Of a stretch of DNA of 64,000 nucleotides, positions 17,163 through 25,138 are shown piece by piece. The notes beneath the pieces are model-generated. The model made no database searches. It saw only the letters and a program-made list of their open reading frames with translations, and was not told the origin of the DNA. Origin of the DNA: Bacteroidota bacterium (lineage in GTDB: Bacteria; Bacteroidota; Bacteroidia; UBA7662; JAIXUI01); the NCBI GenBank assembly GCA_027484125.1, contig JAIXUI010000074.1, forward strand, positions 63,791-127,790, in the 5' to 3' direction. How positions within the stretch are numbered: position 1 is the stretch's first letter; every line of letters starts with the position of its first letter. The translations under genes were made by a program, and so were the position numbers.

Positions 17163-17920
17163 GTATATTGAATTAAAAGGCCAAAGTATAACCTACTTGT
17201 TTAACTTTCTCAACCCCTATGTTACTTATTGACCAACCGGCACCTTTATTATGCTTTTTTAAGAACTTATCAACAAATATTCCATGAATTTTTTATGCTC
17301 AAGTTCTTTTTATTTTAATTATCTCATAAATGGTATTTTTTCCATTTATTGATAATAATTAAACGAAGTTTTAAGCCGCCTCTACCAAAAACTTTTCTGA
17401 CACAAATTGCCTTAAAATGACTGTTTGAAACATTTTAAACCGAAATAACTATTTTATGTTTAATTATTTAAATATTTCAATAATTATAAATCGCCTAATT
17501 TTTTTGTTTTTACTTAATTATTTATGTTTTTAAATAGCACAATATTCCATCGGCTACTCTGCAAAAATACAGATATGAATTTTCTATATATTTGATAAAA
17601 CAATATGTATAACACCCGTAGCTACTCAGGTTTATACGTTTCCTCGTCAATGATATCCACTTTCATTGAGGCATTCCAAGTTCAAGCCAGGCTACAGCCA
17701 GCCATTCAACCATTAAATTGATTGAAAAAAAGTATATGAAACCACCCTATGCGTATGATTTTAAGACGCCTGTGTCAGTTTCATTAAGCACATTCCACAA
17801 AAATACGTACGGGATAGCAAGGCTAGAAGGAGCTGGTAATGCACAAACTAAGGAAGGTTGTCAAAGATTCAATCACACTAAAGACGCCCTTCTTCATGGT
17901 GATGACCAACGTGACTTAAC

Positions 17921-17950
17921 AAAAAAGGCTGCCTGTGGCAGCCTTTTTTT
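17921..17950. terminator. bidirectional intrinsic terminator (serves the gldH-like gene on the minus strand)
   Basis: aaaaaaggctgcc-tgt-ggcagccttttttt: a 7-bp GC stem flanked by A6 and T7. The minus-gene stop codon lies at 17950-17952. Confidence 0.75.
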
Positions 17951-18426
17951 CACTTTGACATCAACTTGGCCTCAAAGCCAACATCCTCAATGCCGAGTAA
18001 TGGATTGTCACGCATGTTTTGTTCTATTTCAAGCGTATAGGTGCCTGCCATAGGAAGTGTCCAGTACGAAGTAAGCCGACTGCGAAGTGTTATGGTAGCT
18101 CCAGACGTTTTTCCAAGCCATTGACCATTTTCATCAGCCAATTGAAGACTAACACGAAATCGCTGTATGCGGCCATTGGGTTGCTTAAGCCTGAGCATCA
18201 AATACAGATTCTCATAGGCATAATCATCAGCATGGCGCAGCTGAAGTGTAATCTGCACTTTCTTGTTGGGCTCAGTTACAACCAGCTCATGAGAAACTCG
18301 TTGGTTCCAGTTCCACTTTTCATCTTCTATCGACTCAAACACCTGTGCCAGTTGATTAGGGTCACGGTTACAGGCAGTGAGGGAAACAAACAGGCCAAGA
18401 CTTAGAGAAAACACCAGTTTACGCAT
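17950..18426 (-). CDS. gldH: gliding motility lipoprotein GldH-like
   Basis: Trimmed to the Met of MRKLVFSLSLGLFVSLTAC (lipobox; ATG at 18424-18426), giving a 158-aa lipoprotein. It overlaps the stop of the upstream PSP1 gene by 8 nt. A PSP1-gldH arrangement is, as I recall, conserved in gliding Bacteroidota. Confidence 0.55.
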   Translation of the reverse strand: MRKLVFSLSLGLFVSLTACNRDPNQLAQVFESIEDEKWNWNQRVSHELVVTEPNKKVQITLQLRHADDYAYENLYLMLRLKQPNGRIQRFRVSLQLADENGQWLGKTSGATITLRSRLTSYWTLPMAGTYTLEIEQNMRDNPLLGIEDVGFEAKLMSK

Positions 18427-20230
18427 CACCGGAAGTAGGTTTGTCTGGCCCTTTACCTGGATTGTTGGGGCGGTTATTATCTCTACGGTTGTCGCCACGT
18501 TGATCTCTTCGGTTGCGGTCAAATGGCTTTTTGCCTTCCTGAGGAGGATTGCTGCGAGGAGCATCCGCTTGTGGAGACTGCGGTTTAGGCCCACCTTCTG
18601 GTCGGTTTTCCTTAAATGGAGGGTTTTGCGGACGCTCACCACGCTCTTGACGTGGTTGTTGAGGCTTATTTTCGCCATCCTGGCGTTGTTCCCTAAATGG
18701 TGGTCTTTGTGGACGATCGCCTCGTTCATTGCGAGGTGGATGTTGTGGCTTGCTTTGGCCTTCACCACGTTGCTCCTTGAAGGGCGGCTTCTGCGGCCGT
18801 TCACCACGCTCAGCCTGAGGCTGCTGAGGATTTACAGGCGGTTGTCCGCTTGGCCTTTGTTCTTTGAAAGGCGGCCTTTGCGAACCCTCTCTACGTTCAC
18901 CTTGTGGCTGTTGTGGTTTCGGGCCCTCCTTTCTTTCCTGAGGACGGCGGTCTTCGGGCTTGCGAGGCGGCATTCCACCACGACGGGCATCGCCTTCGCT
19001 ACGCATTCGAACTTCTTGAGGTGCAACCTCTGACTTTGTAACCATGGTTGGAGGAGCTCCGGATTTAGCAGGAAGCGTAGCAACGGCATCGCCTGGCTTC
19101 TTCTTCTTTTTCTTCTTCTTTTTCCGGTCAAATCGGTTGAGGTCGCCCTCTATTACCGCTTCGAATTCTGGCTCTTCGTCCTCTTCTTCCTCCTCAGCTA
19201 AAGCCAGCAGCAAGTACTCATCTTCTGCCTTCTCCGGATGAATTCCGGATTCGTTCATGGCTCTAATTTCCTTTACACGCTCTGGAGAAAGGGGAATCAT
19301 GGTATTGTCACCGGGGCCTGCAGGAGTGTAGTACATGATGCGACGGAAAATGTCCGTTTTCATGAGCTCCAGCTTGCCCGTTTGAATCATGAGGTATTTG
19401 CAATCAGTAGGCAAATCCTTGAGTGCATCGAGGTAGGTGTCCAGCTCGTAATTAAGGCAGCATTTCAAACGGCCGCATTGCCCTGCCAGCTTAAGCGGGT
19501 TCAAAGACAAGTTCTGGTAACGGGCGGCTGAGGTGGTGACCGACTTGAAATCCGTTAACCAAGTGGAACAGCAAAGTTCTCTTCCACAAGTACCAATACC
19601 ACCAATGCGCCCTGCTTCCTGACGAGCCCCAATTTGACGCATTTCAACGCGAGTTTTGAAAGTCTCCGCCAGCACTTTGATGAGCTCACGAAAATCCACC
19701 CGGTCTTCAGCGGTATAATAGAAAATAATTTTTCCACCATCAGCTTGATATTCCACATCACTAAGTTTCATATCAAGCTTGAGTTCTTGAATCAACTCAC
19801 GGCTTTTGTAGATTACCTCAGGTTCTTTTTCCTTCAACGCGAAGTACTTATCGAGTTCTTCCTGACTAGCCTTTCTGAGAATACGCTTGAGGGTATTGTC
19901 GTCTTCTTGAATGCCCTTCTTCTTGAGTTGAAGACGAACGAGTTCGCCTTTAACTGAAACCTGTCCGATGTCGTATCCGGAGTTACCTGCCTCTAGAATG
20001 ATGTATTCGTTATTGAACAAATCGAGGCCGTCTTCATTACGGAAAAACTCCTTTCGAGTTCCCTTGAAACGTATCTCTACAATATTGAAAGCTGGCTGTT
20101 CGCCGGGCATAGTCATACCCGAAAGCCAGTCATATACATTCAGTCTGTTGCAACCTCCGGAACTACAATGGCCTTGGTCTCCGCAGCCGGCAGGCGAACA
20201 GCCTCCGCTTCCACAGCTTCCACATCCCAT
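18419..20230 (-). CDS. PSP1 C-terminal domain protein (RicT/YaaT-like) with a long low-complexity repeat tail
   Basis: Cys-rich N-terminus MGCGSCGSGGCSPAGCGDQGHCSSGGC (ATG at 20228-20230). PSP1 core (...LCCSTWL...CGRLKCCLNYELD...), then an acidic run, K9 and four roughly 28-aa P/Q/E/R-rich repeats. Confidence 0.8.
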   Translation of the reverse strand: MGCGSCGSGGCSPAGCGDQGHCSSGGCNRLNVYDWLSGMTMPGEQPAFNIVEIRFKGTRKEFFRNEDGLDLFNNEYIILEAGNSGYDIGQVSVKGELVRLQLKKKGIQEDDNTLKRILRKASQEELDKYFALKEKEPEVIYKSRELIQELKLDMKLSDVEYQADGGKIIFYYTAEDRVDFRELIKVLAETFKTRVEMRQIGARQEAGRIGGIGTCGRELCCSTWLTDFKSVTTSAARYQNLSLNPLKLAGQCGRLKCCLNYELDTYLDALKDLPTDCKYLMIQTGKLELMKTDIFRRIMYYTPAGPGDNTMIPLSPERVKEIRAMNESGIHPEKAEDEYLLLALAEEEEEDEEPEFEAVIEGDLNRFDRKKKKKKKKKPGDAVATLPAKSGAPPTMVTKSEVAPQEVRMRSEGDARRGGMPPRKPEDRRPQERKEGPKPQQPQGERREGSQRPPFKEQRPSGQPPVNPQQPQAERGERPQKPPFKEQRGEGQSKPQHPPRNERGDRPQRPPFREQRQDGENKPQQPRQERGERPQNPPFKENRPEGGPKPQSPQADAPRSNPPQEGKKPFDRNRRDQRGDNRRDNNRPNNPGKGPDKPTSGDA

Positions 20231-20578
20231 ATTAAATTCCTTTTTTGGTTTCCTGCAAAAATGCGGAAAAAAAGGAATACCAGCACCCAAGCTTAAGGAG
20301 CAGTAATTCGAGTAAAGACAAGCTTAATTAAATTTACAACAAGTGATCATTTGAAAAATCCTCCCAGAAAAAACCAGATTGAATTGTTCTTCAACTTAAG
20401 TTGAGGAATGGTTCACTAGTTGATTCAAAGTAGAAGGCTGTTTTAAAGTAAAATTTACACTTGCAAACGCTTTAAACAACCATTACCACTCAAAACATGC
20501 GGGAAGCGTAAAGAGAAAAGAAATAGATTTCACATTGCCCCATGCAACCTTGAACCATAAAATTTCGTCACCTTCGCA

Positions 20579-23066: not shown

Positions 23067-23819
23067 ATGAAGCAGTTGACCGTTCAACATACACTGGAAG
23101 ATTTCCTGACCACCTCTCCATTAGCCTTTCGCGTTTTGGAGCAGCATGGGTTATCTATCAAGCGATTCGACAACCTCGACCTTTCTTTGGATGCCGCATG
23201 TATGCTAACTGATACTCGCGTTGAAAAGGTTTTAGAAGATTTACTCGCTATTGGCGAGCCCGTACGCATGAATGAAAGAGGAGCTGAAGCGCTTTCCACG
23301 GAGGAAATCCTTCGGTTGCTCCATCAAAATCACCATGAGTTCCTCGCAAGGCTCTTTCCACGGATTGAGCTACTGCTCTATCATTTAGCTAAGCATCCCC
23401 AAGACGACCAAATTAACTTACAGGCACTCACTGAAGCCTTTTTACAGCTTAAAGCCGACTTTGCTCAGCATGTGATGGAAGAAACGGAAAGTTTATTTCC
23501 CTACGTGGAACTGCTACTTCGTATTGAGCGCGGCGAAGGCCGCCCGGATGCGATACTCGCTTTAATGGAGCAAGGCCTCGCCGGTAGCATGGTTGAAAAC
23601 GATTGCGACATTCACCAGTTTGTCCTTCGCTTGAGGCTTTCTTCCAACCATTACGAACCTGCTGATACCAACAACATCATGCTCAACTCTCTTTGCAGGG
23701 CACTGAAAGAACTAGAAGAATCGCTGTATCAGCATGAGTACATCGAGTTTGAGATTTTACTGAAACGGATTTTGGAACTCGAAAACAACGCCATGGAACG
23801 AGTTCGTCGAGAAGGATAA
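23067..23819 (+). CDS. hemerythrin-like di-iron protein (ScdA/YtfE-like N-domain plus HHE cation-binding motifs)
   Basis: The N-terminus (MKQLTVQHTLEDFLTTSPLAFRVLEQHGL) resembles ScdA_N. H-HxxE motifs (HQNHHEFLARLFP, HVMEETESLFPYVE) follow. ATG 23067 is preferred over the ORF-track extension at 22911, which overlaps the divergent hydrolase gene. Confidence 0.45.
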   Translation: MKQLTVQHTLEDFLTTSPLAFRVLEQHGLSIKRFDNLDLSLDAACMLTDTRVEKVLEDLLAIGEPVRMNERGAEALSTEEILRLLHQNHHEFLARLFPRIELLLYHLAKHPQDDQINLQALTEAFLQLKADFAQHVMEETESLFPYVELLLRIERGEGRPDAILALMEQGLAGSMVENDCDIHQFVLRLRLSSNHYEPADTNNIMLNSLCRALKELEESLYQHEYIEFEILLKRILELENNAMERVRREG

Positions 23820-24061
23820 ACCTCGTTTCAAACTACATTTCAGAATTTCCGGCAACTTCTTTCCAACAAAACGACCTTGCTTAAGGTGGAGCATGCAATA
23901 CTGCATGGATATAATTTTTTGGCTATCCCTCATTAAAGGTTAACGATAGCATTCTTAATCGTCTTAATTGCTTCGAAATAAGTTGAAATGGATTTCAACT
24001 TATGCCCCAATGGGTGGTGGTTCAGTACGGCTTTCGTGTAACTTTGGGTCAATTTCAATTC

Positions 24062-25138
24062 ATGCCGATGAAAGTGCACAACTTTAGCGCAGGCCCGGGC
24101 ATTTTACCCGCCGAGGTGCTGCAACAGGCTGCGGAAGCCGCGATTAATTTCAAGGGGATGGGGCTCTCCCTCCTCGAAATCTCTCACCGAAGCAAAGAGT
24201 ATGTCGCTGCCATCGACGAGGCTATGGATGTGGTTCGCCGCCTCCTCCACCTCTCTGACGACTACGCCGTGGTGTACCTTCAAGGAGGTGCAAGCCTGCA
24301 ATTCAGCATGGTACCTTTCAACCTATTACGTCCTGAGGGTTATGCTGCTTACGTAAATTCCGGCGTTTGGGCTACTAAAGCGACTCAGGAAGCCGAAAAA
24401 CTGGGTAAAACTAAAGTTATCGCTTCTTCAAAAGACGCCAACTTCAGTTATGTGCCGAAGGGATATGACATTCCGTCGGATGCAGACTACCTCCACATTA
24501 CTTCAAACAATACCATTTACGGTACCCAGATGAAGGATTTTCCTCAATCTCCGGTGCCTTTGGTTTGCGACATGTCTTCTGACATCTTCTCCCGCGTTTT
24601 CGACCCGAACCAATTCGGTCTGATTTACGCAGGAGCACAGAAAAACATGGGGCCTGCCGGTGCCACACTCGCCATCATCCGCAAGGATTTGCTCGGCAAG
24701 AGCGGTCGCAACATGCCTACCATGCTCAATTATGCTCCGCATATCGAGAATGGCTCGATGTACAACACCCCTTCAGTATTCTCTGTGTATGTATGTATGC
24801 TCACGCTACAATGGCTGGAACGCAATGGCGGTGTGCCGGCAGCTGAAACGCGCAACCGTGCTAAAGCAGATTTACTTTACAATGAAATCGACAGAAATGG
24901 CTTGTTCAAAGGCACTTGTGCTACCGAAGACCGTTCTGATATGAACGCAACTTTCGTGCTTACGGATGAAAGCCACGCTGCTGATTTCGAAAAGATGCTC
25001 AAAGACGCCAACATCAGCGGACTGAAAGGGCACCGCTCGGTTGGTGGATACCGCGCTTCTATTTACAACGCTATGCCTATTGAAAGCGTACAAGTGCTGG
25101 TCGATGTGATGAAAACCTTTGAAAAACAGCGCGGATGA
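24062..25138 (+). CDS. serC: 3-phosphoserine/phosphohydroxythreonine aminotransferase
   Basis: MPMKVHNFSAGPGILPAEVL... followed by the PLP-binding region. Confidence 0.9.
   Translation: MPMKVHNFSAGPGILPAEVLQQAAEAAINFKGMGLSLLEISHRSKEYVAAIDEAMDVVRRLLHLSDDYAVVYLQGGASLQFSMVPFNLLRPEGYAAYVNSGVWATKATQEAEKLGKTKVIASSKDANFSYVPKGYDIPSDADYLHITSNNTIYGTQMKDFPQSPVPLVCDMSSDIFSRVFDPNQFGLIYAGAQKNMGPAGATLAIIRKDLLGKSGRNMPTMLNYAPHIENGSMYNTPSVFSVYVCMLTLQWLERNGGVPAAETRNRAKADLLYNEIDRNGLFKGTCATEDRSDMNATFVLTDESHAADFEKMLKDANISGLKGHRSVGGYRASIYNAMPIESVQVLVDVMKTFEKQRG

Follow-up and report, generated by a model that had tools for sequence, protein, structure and literature searches.

The closest described system to the locus analysed here is RicT (YaaT) of Bacillus subtilis, the Fe-S subunit of the RicAFT or Y-complex, which is handed to RNase Y. 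In Bacillus, RicA (YmcA) and RicF (YlbF) form a ternary complex with RicT and supply ligands for cluster 2, and the spacing CX4CCX30CX4CC has been defined as that of the cysteines that ligate the Fe-S clusters (PMC6751060). Bacillus RicT also forms a stable complex with RNase Y and has a role in mRNA maturation (PMC10470536). Bacteroidota homologues are filed as 'PSP1 domain-containing protein', alias 'Signal peptidase-like protein' or 'cell fate regulator YaaT', and are found in Hymenobacter, Pontibacter, Rufibacter, Adhaeribacter, Mucilaginibacter and many metagenomic sequences. In Riemerella, a transposon mutant of the PSP1 gene was less haemolytic, perhaps through a polar effect on a gene downstream. 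RNase E and similar RNA-decay scaffolds carry disordered basic RNA-binding arms. Our search of the literature returned no description of a Bacteroidota form of RicT with a Cys-rich N terminus, linear motif, polybasic cluster and tail.

The window, a 64,000-nucleotide stretch of a Bacteroidota bacterium contig, encodes such a protein on its minus strand. The ORF listing gives the frame as 18419..20290; we set the start downstream, at the ATG at 20230, because the homologues all begin MGC(G/S)SC. The gene and its folded core comprise the following features.

18419..20230, minus strand: PSP1/RicT-like coding sequence, 603 aa plus stop (ATG at 20230, TAA at 18419-18421).
19346..20005, minus strand: RicT_YaaT_fam core, aa 76-295, from the NCBIfam match.
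19631-19888, minus strand: Pfam PSP1 domain, aa 115-200, from the Pfam match.
19457..19588, minus strand: Fe-S ligand motif CX4CCX30CX4CC (C215, C220, C221, C252, C257, C258), spacing read from the translation.

The PSP1/RicT-like identity given in a first-pass annotation of this DNA is borne out by two family models, both matched above their cut-offs: Pfam PSP1 (PF04468) at 111 bits (gathering cut-off 27, E 3e-32) and NCBIfam NF041131, RicT_YaaT_fam, at 258.4 bits (cut-off 70), covering model positions 2-213 of 213. All six cysteines of the ligand motif are invariant in 120 homologues. AlphaFold2 predicts the core with pLDDT above 90 at aa 50-205 and 270-340, and confidence stays high up to about aa 345 and has fallen below 50 by aa 354; Foldseek matched the folded core to a small, common alpha/beta fold, with all E-values at or above 0.03 (KH-type modules were considered). 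By its sequence, the protein is thus a member of the PSP1/RicT family with an intact Fe-S motif, that is, a RicT-like Fe-S protein. It shares with B. subtilis RicT the PSP1 domain, the RicT_YaaT_fam match and the exact CX4CCX30CX4CC spacing, but differs in its 603-aa length, in a Cys-rich segment at aa 1-40, in a basic disordered tail of 258 aa and in the gene that lies downstream, gldH. In the close relatives L131-L133 the upstream gene encodes DNA_pol3_delta2, giving a holB-ricT order like that of Bacillus. With the other Bacteroidota homologues the likeness extends to the whole architecture: the N terminus running from MGCxxC to GGCNRLNV(F/Y)DWL, the core, the motif, a K/R cluster and a disordered basic tail.

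Three features lie at or upstream of the N terminus.

20111..20230, minus strand: Cys/Gly-rich N-terminal extension, aa 1-40, with seven Cys, outside the family models.
20207-20224, minus strand: perfect 9-nt tandem duplication, TGTGGAAGC x2, found by TRF inside the N-terminal extension.
20256..20263, minus strand: candidate Bacteroidota-type -7 promoter box, CATTTTTG, 25 nt 5' of the ATG; TAnnTTTG in relatives.

The extension has no Pfam match and is modelled at a pLDDT of about 41-54. Among 120 homologues, C3, C6, C22 and C27 never vary and C16 almost never does. The Cys-rich segment ends in GGCNRLNV(F/Y)DWL, and aa 1-36 of the window protein fit the pattern of Bacteroidota-type PSP1 proteins; the remainder of that pattern is present too, as L-x-x-[LF]-[DE]-[KR] followed by a K/R cluster and then a hydrophobic-poor, net-basic tail. 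In seven loci the promoter-box columns A-T-x-T-T-T-G are invariant while the remaining upstream DNA is unalignable; the assignment of CATTTTTG as a -7 box is our assumption from the general picture of Bacteroidota promoters. Separately, the window's species and its two sister species, which are 82% (L001) and 69% (L002) identical, have a near-identical 5' block in common. RNA structure was considered as the reason for this block and found no support (folding z = -1.1, no Rfam matches).

The tail is made up of the last 258 residues, encoded by the 3' 774 nt of the gene, and is laid out as follows.

19160..19195, minus strand: acidic run EEEEEDEEPEFE, aa 346-357, translated as EEEEEDEE(PEFE).
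19124..19165, minus strand: conserved short linear motif FEAVIEGDLNRFDR, aa 356-369, consensus F-V-D-V-V-G-Q-x-S-L-K-S-L-E-K.
19097..19123, minus strand: K9 tract, aa 370-378, AAA AAG AAG AAG AAA AAG AAG AAG AAG.
18914..19096, minus strand: disordered variable linker, aa 379-439, pLDDT below 50, aligning poorly with L002.
18575..18913, minus strand: four imperfect repeats of 27-29 aa, aa 440-552, with units starting at aa 440, 469, 497 and 524.
18422..18574, minus strand: R/N/D/P/K-rich C-terminal end, aa 553-603, defined by composition and pLDDT.

The translation confirms the acidic run, nine lysines and four repeats that had been reported for this low-complexity tail. The tail also lies outside canonical RicT, as had been proposed: the RicT model stops at aa 295, and Bacillus RicT has no such tail. 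Net charge per residue is -0.41 in the linker at aa 336-369 and +0.13 at residues 566-603, and hydrophobic residues make up a fraction of 0.06 of the tail compared with 0.35 of the core. AlphaFold2 gives aa 354-603 a pLDDT below 55 and no secondary structure; the C-terminal tail is accordingly predicted to be intrinsically disordered from about aa 354. The tail is coding sequence: in three species the reading frame stays open up to the gldH overlap, with every indel in frame, and between the window and L001 the tail has a pN of 0.26 against a pS of 0.84. The linear motif is conserved. In a set of 85 proteins, Leu occupies position 364 in 99% and position 367 in 94%, an acidic residue position 368 in 99% and a basic one position 369 in 94%; in a set of 120, L364, R366 and D368 are each at least 90% conserved. 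Searches of the tail against PDB sequences and against Pfam (E up to 10) gave no match to a characterised RNA-binding segment, and a homologue search with the repeat region, in which composition filtering took out even the self-match, was equally empty. We favour, with no great margin of confidence, the reading that the 3' 774 nt encode a real, translated, intrinsically disordered extension in a layout shared across Bacteroidota homologues, which probably serves as an electrostatic tether for RNA or a partner. That layout runs from an acidic linker through a short motif (hydrophobic-x-x-hydrophobic, then L-x-x-[LF]-[DE]-[KR]) and a polybasic cluster to a fast-evolving, net-positive stretch that is rich in Pro, Gln, Arg, Glu, Lys and Gly and nearly devoid of hydrophobic residues.

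How widespread this layout is was assessed in two samples of homologues, both picked without regard to the tail: one from a core-only search and one from a degenerate DNA pattern for the GGCNRLNV(F/Y)DWL motif, which found 120 metagenome loci and supplied 85 distinct proteins. Among the cluster representatives from the core-only search, 84 of 116 complete-core matches have at least 100 aa beyond the core, and some homologues are almost tail-less. All 85 proteins found by the N-terminal pattern have a net positive tail, and the median fraction of hydrophobic residues in these tails is 0.01. A disordered basic tail is therefore the norm for Bacteroidota-type PSP1 proteins and not the lineage-specific extension that the first-pass annotation had taken it to be. 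Tail length among homologues ranges from 18 to 234 aa; with 234 aa beyond the motif the window's tail stands at the upper end, as does its K9. Elsewhere in the family the position of K9, after the conserved motif, is occupied by a K/R cluster, and runs of 7-10 lysines are found in Pontibacter, Adhaeribacter and a homologue filed as Microvirga sp. STS03. K9 enlarges a basic cluster that is found throughout the family, and within the tail only the sequence of the repeats and this growth to nine lysines are specific to the clade. A search for related loci among genome contigs returned only eight distant ones and was dominated by the low-complexity peptide pattern EEEEEDEE.

The four repeats follow the consensus QQPxxERGERPQxPPFKEQRxxGxxKPQ, with PPF(K/R)E anchors at aa 453, 482, 510 and 537, spaced 29, 28 and 27 aa apart (87/84/81 nt). 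Four copies of PPF[KR]E were observed, whereas at least one arose in only 75 of 20,000 composition-preserving shuffles of the tail, and residue identity at lags of 27, 28, 29 and 55 gave z = 4.0, 3.4, 2.8 and 6.3. The four imperfect tandem repeats of about 84 nt described at first reading thus stand at the protein level, beyond what chance would give. Their DNA copies are 58-68% identical, most codons for identical residues differ, and because of this divergence TRF called no 84-nt repeat, reporting in the tail only the CTT/AAG tract and short repeats within the acidic run. The repeats are old, kept at the protein level and diverged at synonymous sites. The PPFKE family is common only to the window protein and its 82% relative; L002 has a different, younger repeat of 38 aa (114 nt, 2.4 copies, 87% identity).

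A 27-nt purine trinucleotide tract and tandem repeats are classic substrates for contingency loci, and the presence of a different repeat array in a sister species would fit such a locus. The pure (AAR)9 tract reported for the nine lysines is present, although 8 nt away from the position first given for it (19105-19131), and TRF placed CTT x9.3 at 19097-19124. The tract had been called slippage-prone and treated as possibly hypervariable, which the data contradict: 11 conspecific contigs from several samples, carrying five distinct protein sequences, show no variation in length, and K9 is exact in both L001 and L002, with a different order of AAA and AAG. Tract length polymorphism among close relatives, a mark of contingency loci, was thus absent from these 11 contigs and three species. 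Cluster members of 563 aa were considered as a truncation polymorphism and rejected; their DNA encodes the full N terminus, so they reflect start choices by the gene caller. Copy number is likewise constant within the species and in its nearest relative, and the earlier suggestion that it might vary among orthologues is borne out only in that the 69% relative has another repeat architecture.

The composition of the tract points the same way. AAG is used in seven of the nine K9 codons, against 29% of lysines in the window's genes (P = 0.003), and in 18 of 27 when three species are pooled (P = 6e-5); through this over-use of AAG, runs of A are held to five or fewer, the longest being five. The tail has no long perfect homopolymer and no short-unit repeat through which the frame could shift: the unit is 3 nt with AAG and AAA interspersed, and the 84-nt copies are too diverged for efficient slippage. 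Since the unit of the repeats is a multiple of three, they could not switch the frame in any case. Selection acts on the length of the tail, and the make-up of the lysine run protects it against slippage. Nor does the opposite strand offer a case for a pseudogenised tail with a genuine gene antisense to it.

18377..19033, plus strand: spurious antisense ORF, 218 aa, in the codon register opposite the sense frame.

This ORF exists as described, and its dismissal as spurious was sound. Read in codon register against the tail, where TTA and CTA codons are lacking, it ends at the complement of the tail's sole TCA codon (Ser400, 19033); it stays open because the tail is short of those Leu and Ser codons, so that codon usage explains it. 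We regard a hypervariable tract or repeat array, or a decayed tail opposite a real gene, as extremely improbable.

A tail that is stable in length could nevertheless be largely neutral, with the distal P/Q/R/E-rich repeats being tolerated debris of slippage and duplication, or an entropic spacer, and only the motif and basic cluster mattering. Evolution in the distal tail is about 10 times faster than in the core (dN 0.31 against 0.028), and at an overall identity of 69% the segment can hardly be aligned; together with the range of tail lengths, the almost tail-less homologues and the different repeats of sister species, this speaks for such a view. Set against it are a tail pN well below pS, the net-positive, hydrophobic-poor composition of all 85 tails, the retention of the repeat consensus despite synonymous divergence, and the equal tail lengths of the window protein and its 82% relative. 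We consider this account possible but doubtful. The sequence of the distal tail is barely conserved, as would be expected under relaxed constraint no less than under a 'fuzzy' function.

Downstream, the gene overlaps a gliding-motility gene that is followed by a terminator.

17950..18426, minus strand: gldH, gliding-motility lipoprotein GldH, 158 aa (Pfam GldH_lipo, E 1e-30; TIGR03511, 92 bits).
17921..17949, minus strand: intrinsic-terminator hairpin with a 13-bp stem and U-run, directly 3' of the gldH stop.

The gldH ATG overlaps the PSP1 stop by 8 nt (ATGCGTAA), and the overlap is 4 nt in L131-L133; the two genes are also adjacent in L001, L002 and L131-L136. The terminator was found by direct folding, a scan with a consensus pattern having missed it. 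It has a G+C-rich core, GGCUGCC/GGCAGCC, at 17927-17943 and a folding energy of -19.4 kcal/mol (z = -4.2; 0 of 200 shuffles match it), and because the hairpin is symmetric it could terminate both strands. The PSP1 gene and gldH form a two-gene unit, as seen from the stop/start overlap and the terminator 3' of gldH. Across metagenome loci, a phmmer search with the window's GldH placed GldH downstream in 8 of 76, a lower bound because GldH diverges fast; in many, other genes lie 3'.

This linkage bears on two further explanations of the tail. In one, stalling or sliding on K9, together with tail length, would tune the output of GldH at the level of translation. The conserved overlap speaks for it, and Bacteroidota are described as not using Shine-Dalgarno initiation (PMC7797042), which makes coupling between the PSP1 gene and gldH plausible. 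An AAG-rich tract with A-runs of at most five is the opposite of what promotes sliding, however, basic tails are found in lineages without gldH downstream, and what is conserved in the lysine run is the amino acid, its codons having changed synonymously; we think control of this kind very unlikely. In the other, the motif and K9 would attach to anionic phospholipids and so keep the protein at the inner membrane, for example beside a membrane-anchored RNase Y or the gliding/T9SS machinery encoded with gldH. Co-transcription and apparent translational coupling with a lipoprotein gene would suit a membrane tether, as would the moderate amphipathicity of aa 356-373 (hydrophobic moment up to 0.48-0.51) and the attachment of Bacillus RNase Y to the membrane. 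Acidic residues (E355, E357, E361, D363, D368) line the polar face of the putative helix, which is unfavourable for anionic membranes, AlphaFold2 gives no helix at the motif, which is internal and not terminal, and the gldH linkage is missing from most of the Chitinophaga-like loci that retain a basic tail (the lower bound given above applies). A membrane tether is in our judgement unlikely.

The reading that we prefer is of an ordinary, family-typical disordered arm that probably tethers RNA or a partner. The conserved motif would dock a partner, the polybasic cluster and basic disordered arm would bind RNA or another polyanion electrostatically, and the arm would tether substrate at the folded Fe-S core or raise its concentration there, with the repeats adding valency and length and not a specific fold. 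In Bacillus, mRNA processing is directed by loading the homologous core onto RNase Y, and the complex of Bacillus RicT with RNase Y lends weak support to a link with RNA. An analogy is offered by the Arg-rich segments in the C-terminal half of RNase E: they too have low hydrophobicity and mixed charge with a net positive balance, and carry short conserved motifs in fast-evolving sequence attached to an RNA-processing factor, but they have no sequence relationship to this tail, and the analogy is one of mechanism only. The nucleic-acid- or membrane-binding role suggested for the tail at the outset remains the most reasonable guess. A bolder version, which we hold to be a long shot, is a self-contained Y-complex in one polypeptide, in which the invariant N-terminal cysteines would replace the cluster-2 ligands that RicA and RicF donate in Firmicutes, the motif, polybasic cluster and tail would tether RNA or an RNase, and tight coupling to gldH would link RNA processing to the gliding/T9SS envelope machinery; tethering might then proceed by condensate formation.

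These results show that the lysine run and repeats are the normal, length-stable tail of a widespread subfamily, and the locus should therefore not be flagged as hypervariable or phase-variable. They also set out how Bacteroidota RicT differs from that of Bacillus, namely in the Cys-rich N terminus, the motif, the polybasic cluster and the disordered tail, and these four elements would be the first to mutate in studies of RNA processing in Bacteroidota.

The PSP1/RicT-like gene lies on the minus strand, and its ORF call runs up to a TTG at 20290. Because homologues all start with MGC(G/S)xC, we place the start at the ATG at 20230, which gives a product of 603 amino acids. This protein matched Pfam PSP1 over aa 115-200 (E 3e-32) and, over aa 76-295, NCBIfam RicT_YaaT_fam (258 bits; cut-off 70). 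Six cysteines (C215, C220, C221, C252, C257 and C258) stand in the exact CX4CCX30CX4CC arrangement, the published RicT spacing (PMC6751060), and all testable hallmarks of the RicT/PSP1 family were present. Searches of solved structures gave no sequence match to core or tail.

Features of the PSP1 gene and of gldH, the gene downstream
20111-20230, minus strand: Cys/Gly-rich N-terminal extension, MGCGSCGSGGCSPAGCGDQGHCSSGGCNRLNVYDWLS, with seven cysteines and low pLDDT
20207-20224 (codons 3-8), minus strand: perfect 9-nt tandem duplication, TGTGGAAGC twice, coding for CGSCGS
18419-18426, minus strand: overlap of PSP1 stop and gldH ATG, ATGCGTAA, 8 nt in the window
17921-17949, straight after the gldH stop: hairpin with U-run, -19.4 kcal/mol, z = -4.2

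As the first-pass annotation had proposed, the tail (the last 258 aa) lies outside canonical RicT: compared with the Bacillus protein, the window protein adds this tail and the Cys-rich N-terminal segment, and neither has a Pfam match. Across 120 homologues, C3, C6, C22 and C27 of the N-terminal segment do not vary, and the TGTGGAAGC duplication is unchanged in L001 and L002, the loci of two sister species. Three of the five distinct sequences in the public cluster (P0122-P0124; conspecific loci L135 and L136) are 40 residues short, at 563 aa. We rejected them as a real short form: the DNA codes for the full Cys-rich N-terminus, and the length arises because the gene caller chose Met41 as start.

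AlphaFold2, run with a 120-sequence alignment, predicted a confident core (pLDDT above 90) and a disordered tail, with values below 55 and no secondary structure from residue 354 to the end. Hydrophobic residues make up 6% of the tail versus 35% of the core; the charged fraction of the tail is 0.36 and its net charge slightly positive. The acidic run noticed at first pass is present at aa 346-357, and a strongly acidic linker precedes the lysines. These do number nine (aa 370-378; hereafter K9), in a tract that TRF also detects, although their true position, 19097-19123, is 8 nt from that first assigned. The four repeats were likewise recovered, with PPF(K/R)E anchors at aa 453, 482, 510 and 537. 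They exceed chance: only 75 of 20000 tail shuffles contained the anchor motif, against four copies observed, and positional identity peaks at lags of 27-29 and 55 (z 2.8 to 6.3). At DNA level the copies share only 58-68% identity, which is why TRF misses the 28-aa repeats, and identical residues mostly use different codons. Judged from their sequence, these repeats arose long ago and are preserved as protein.

In the window, L001 (82% identical) and L002 (69%), the frame is uninterrupted as far as the overlap with gldH, and indels among the three are all in frame. Tail pN between window and L001 is 0.26, far below a saturated pS of 0.84, and the tail protein is therefore under constraint. Over longer times the distal tail does change, dN there exceeding the core value about tenfold (0.31 vs 0.028 for L001, 0.80 vs 0.049 for L002); a rival reading holds this segment to be largely neutral. 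The L002 tail lacks the 28-aa repeats and has instead 2.4 copies of a 38-aa (114-nt) unit (L002 4385-4652), whose 87% DNA identity indicates an independent, more recent duplication.

TTA and CTA codons are absent from the tail, and TCA is used once, for Ser400. An antisense ORF does exist at 18377-19033 but is spurious, as first supposed: it lies codon for codon opposite the sense frame and stops at 19033 because that is the complement of the lone TCA. A 285-aa ORF at 17950-18807 on the minus strand is gldH prolonged at its 5' side through the PSP1 tail, read there in a different frame. Because the tail sequence is stop-poor, ORFs are inflated in more than one frame.

The lysine tract had been described as slippage-prone, with a tail that might be hypervariable. 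Neither description held. A 90%-identity cluster contained five distinct sequences on 11 contigs, with constant tail length and point substitutions only, and when two independent assemblies were compared with the window, the whole gene was free of indels. L001 and L002 have exactly nine lysines each, in differing orders of AAA and AAG, which implies synonymous change while the lysine count was held. AAG fills seven of the nine K9 codons, compared with 29% of lysine codons in the window's large genes (P = 0.003), and 18 of 27 when three species are pooled (P = 6e-5); the longest A-run is at most five. This codon choice works against slippage. That the tract is a contingency locus is thus largely refuted by the absence of length change among the five conspecific sequences and by the exact count in both sister species.

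The suggestion that the tail is lineage-specific also failed, since three samples of homologues agree that tails occur elsewhere. In the best 120 matches of a full-length search, a biased sample whose candidates were picked by shared words, the tail measures 47-258 aa and is rich in P, K, R, E, Q and N; many of these proteins, including Pontibacter and Adhaeribacter homologues, carry 6-10 consecutive lysines. When only the core (aa 1-345) was searched against 1.84 billion cluster representatives, 84 of 116 complete-core matches had a tail of 100 aa or longer (median 140), in most cases poor in hydrophobic residues, and 48 had a dense K/R patch. The third sample was selected without reference to the tail, using a degenerate nucleotide pattern that encodes the N-terminal GGCNRLNV(F/Y)DW; 120 metagenome loci yielded 85 distinct complete proteins. 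The tail was net-positive in all 85, with a median hydrophobic fraction of 0.01. The last conserved protein element in this sample spans window residues 356-375 and comprises a short motif (Leu in 99% at 364 and in 94% at 367, acidic in 99% at 368, basic in 94% at 369) and, after it, a K/R cluster whose positions 372-375 are basic in 72-95%; beyond the motif, tails run from 18 to 234 aa. Since the cluster is family-wide, K9 is its enlarged version. In tail length and in number of lysines alike, the window's clade stands at the upper extreme.

The next gene downstream encodes the gliding-motility lipoprotein GldH (Pfam GldH_lipo, E 1e-30). PSP1 stop and gldH start overlap in the window, L001, L002 and L131-L136 (4 nt, ATGA, are shared in L131-L133), an arrangement that hints at coupled translation. 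The hairpin beyond gldH is symmetric and G+C-rich, with A-runs and T-runs on its flanks, and looks like a bidirectional intrinsic terminator; a consensus terminator scan did not detect it. Weak Rfam sRNA matches at 17902-17963 are probably merely this hairpin. Given the overlap and the strong hairpin, PSP1 and gldH form one unit. The tail might on this arrangement tune gldH translation, but the AAG-rich K9 tract argues against it. Among seven loci compared, the sole conserved upstream sequence is a candidate -7 box, which we take to match the Bacteroidota -7 promoter element. The order holB-PSP1-gldH in closer relatives (L131-L133) resembles holB-yaaT in Bacillus; upstream of the window's PSP1 gene, a divergent TPR gene takes the place of holB. 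Between PSP1 and this TPR gene the conspecific contig L136 has a 15-nt deletion (window 20359-20373), and three assemblies compared over the 2.7-kb operon region differ by no other indel. Many Chitinophaga-like metagenome loci have another gene downstream, often for a Bax-inhibitor-like membrane protein.

The 5' end of the PSP1 gene is near-identical in nucleotides across window, L001 and L002 (window 20055-20279, minus strand, leader plus about 58 codons); the block begins about 46 nt before the ATG and extends to about codon 45, with three-way identity of 97-100% from +12 to +101. Binned pS climbs over about 100 codons (0.00, 0.11, 0.39, 0.56, 0.59, then about 0.8-0.9); outside the block, synonymous sites are saturated and upstream DNA is unalignable. 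The gradient is absent in the more distant L131-L134, where sites vary freely; RNA folding is unremarkable (z = -1.1), and Rfam has no match that would explain the block. An aminotransferase gene (24002-25138, plus strand) has the same gradient at its 5' end (0.08, 0.07, 0.29, 0.27, 0.45, then 0.70). Across the roughly 14 kb that L001 shares with the window, its block at 24017-24256 is the only other one to reach 93% identity. Conservation of this kind at the 5' end is thus not confined to PSP1. The gene that ends at 23819 has a weaker pS dip, and eight other orthologous pairs showed no gradient.

The family-typical layout on the RicT-type Fe-S core is an acidic linker, a conserved short motif, a polybasic cluster and, last, a basic, disordered arm that evolves fast. 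As the most likely role, we propose that the motif would be a docking site, that cluster and arm would hold RNA or some other polyanion by electrostatic attraction, and that the repeats may contribute length and valency. The polybasic patch could instead serve as a membrane tether, but the polar side of the putative helix is acidic and many lineages keep the tail without gldH linkage. Bacillus RicT is loaded onto RNase Y and directs mRNA maturation (PMC10470536), an observation that points toward, rather than proves, such a role for the arm. More speculatively, the N-terminal cysteines could supply the additional ligands for Fe-S clusters or metal that in Bacillus come from RicA and RicF; that the Bacteroidota protein unites in one chain roles split among RicA, RicF and RicT in Firmicutes seems improbable. 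A search of the literature yielded no paper describing the Bacteroidota form, and its sole mention was a Riemerella PSP1-gene transposon mutant with reduced haemolysis. The window protein is a further member of a known protein subfamily, and its disordered tail, though long, is ordinary.
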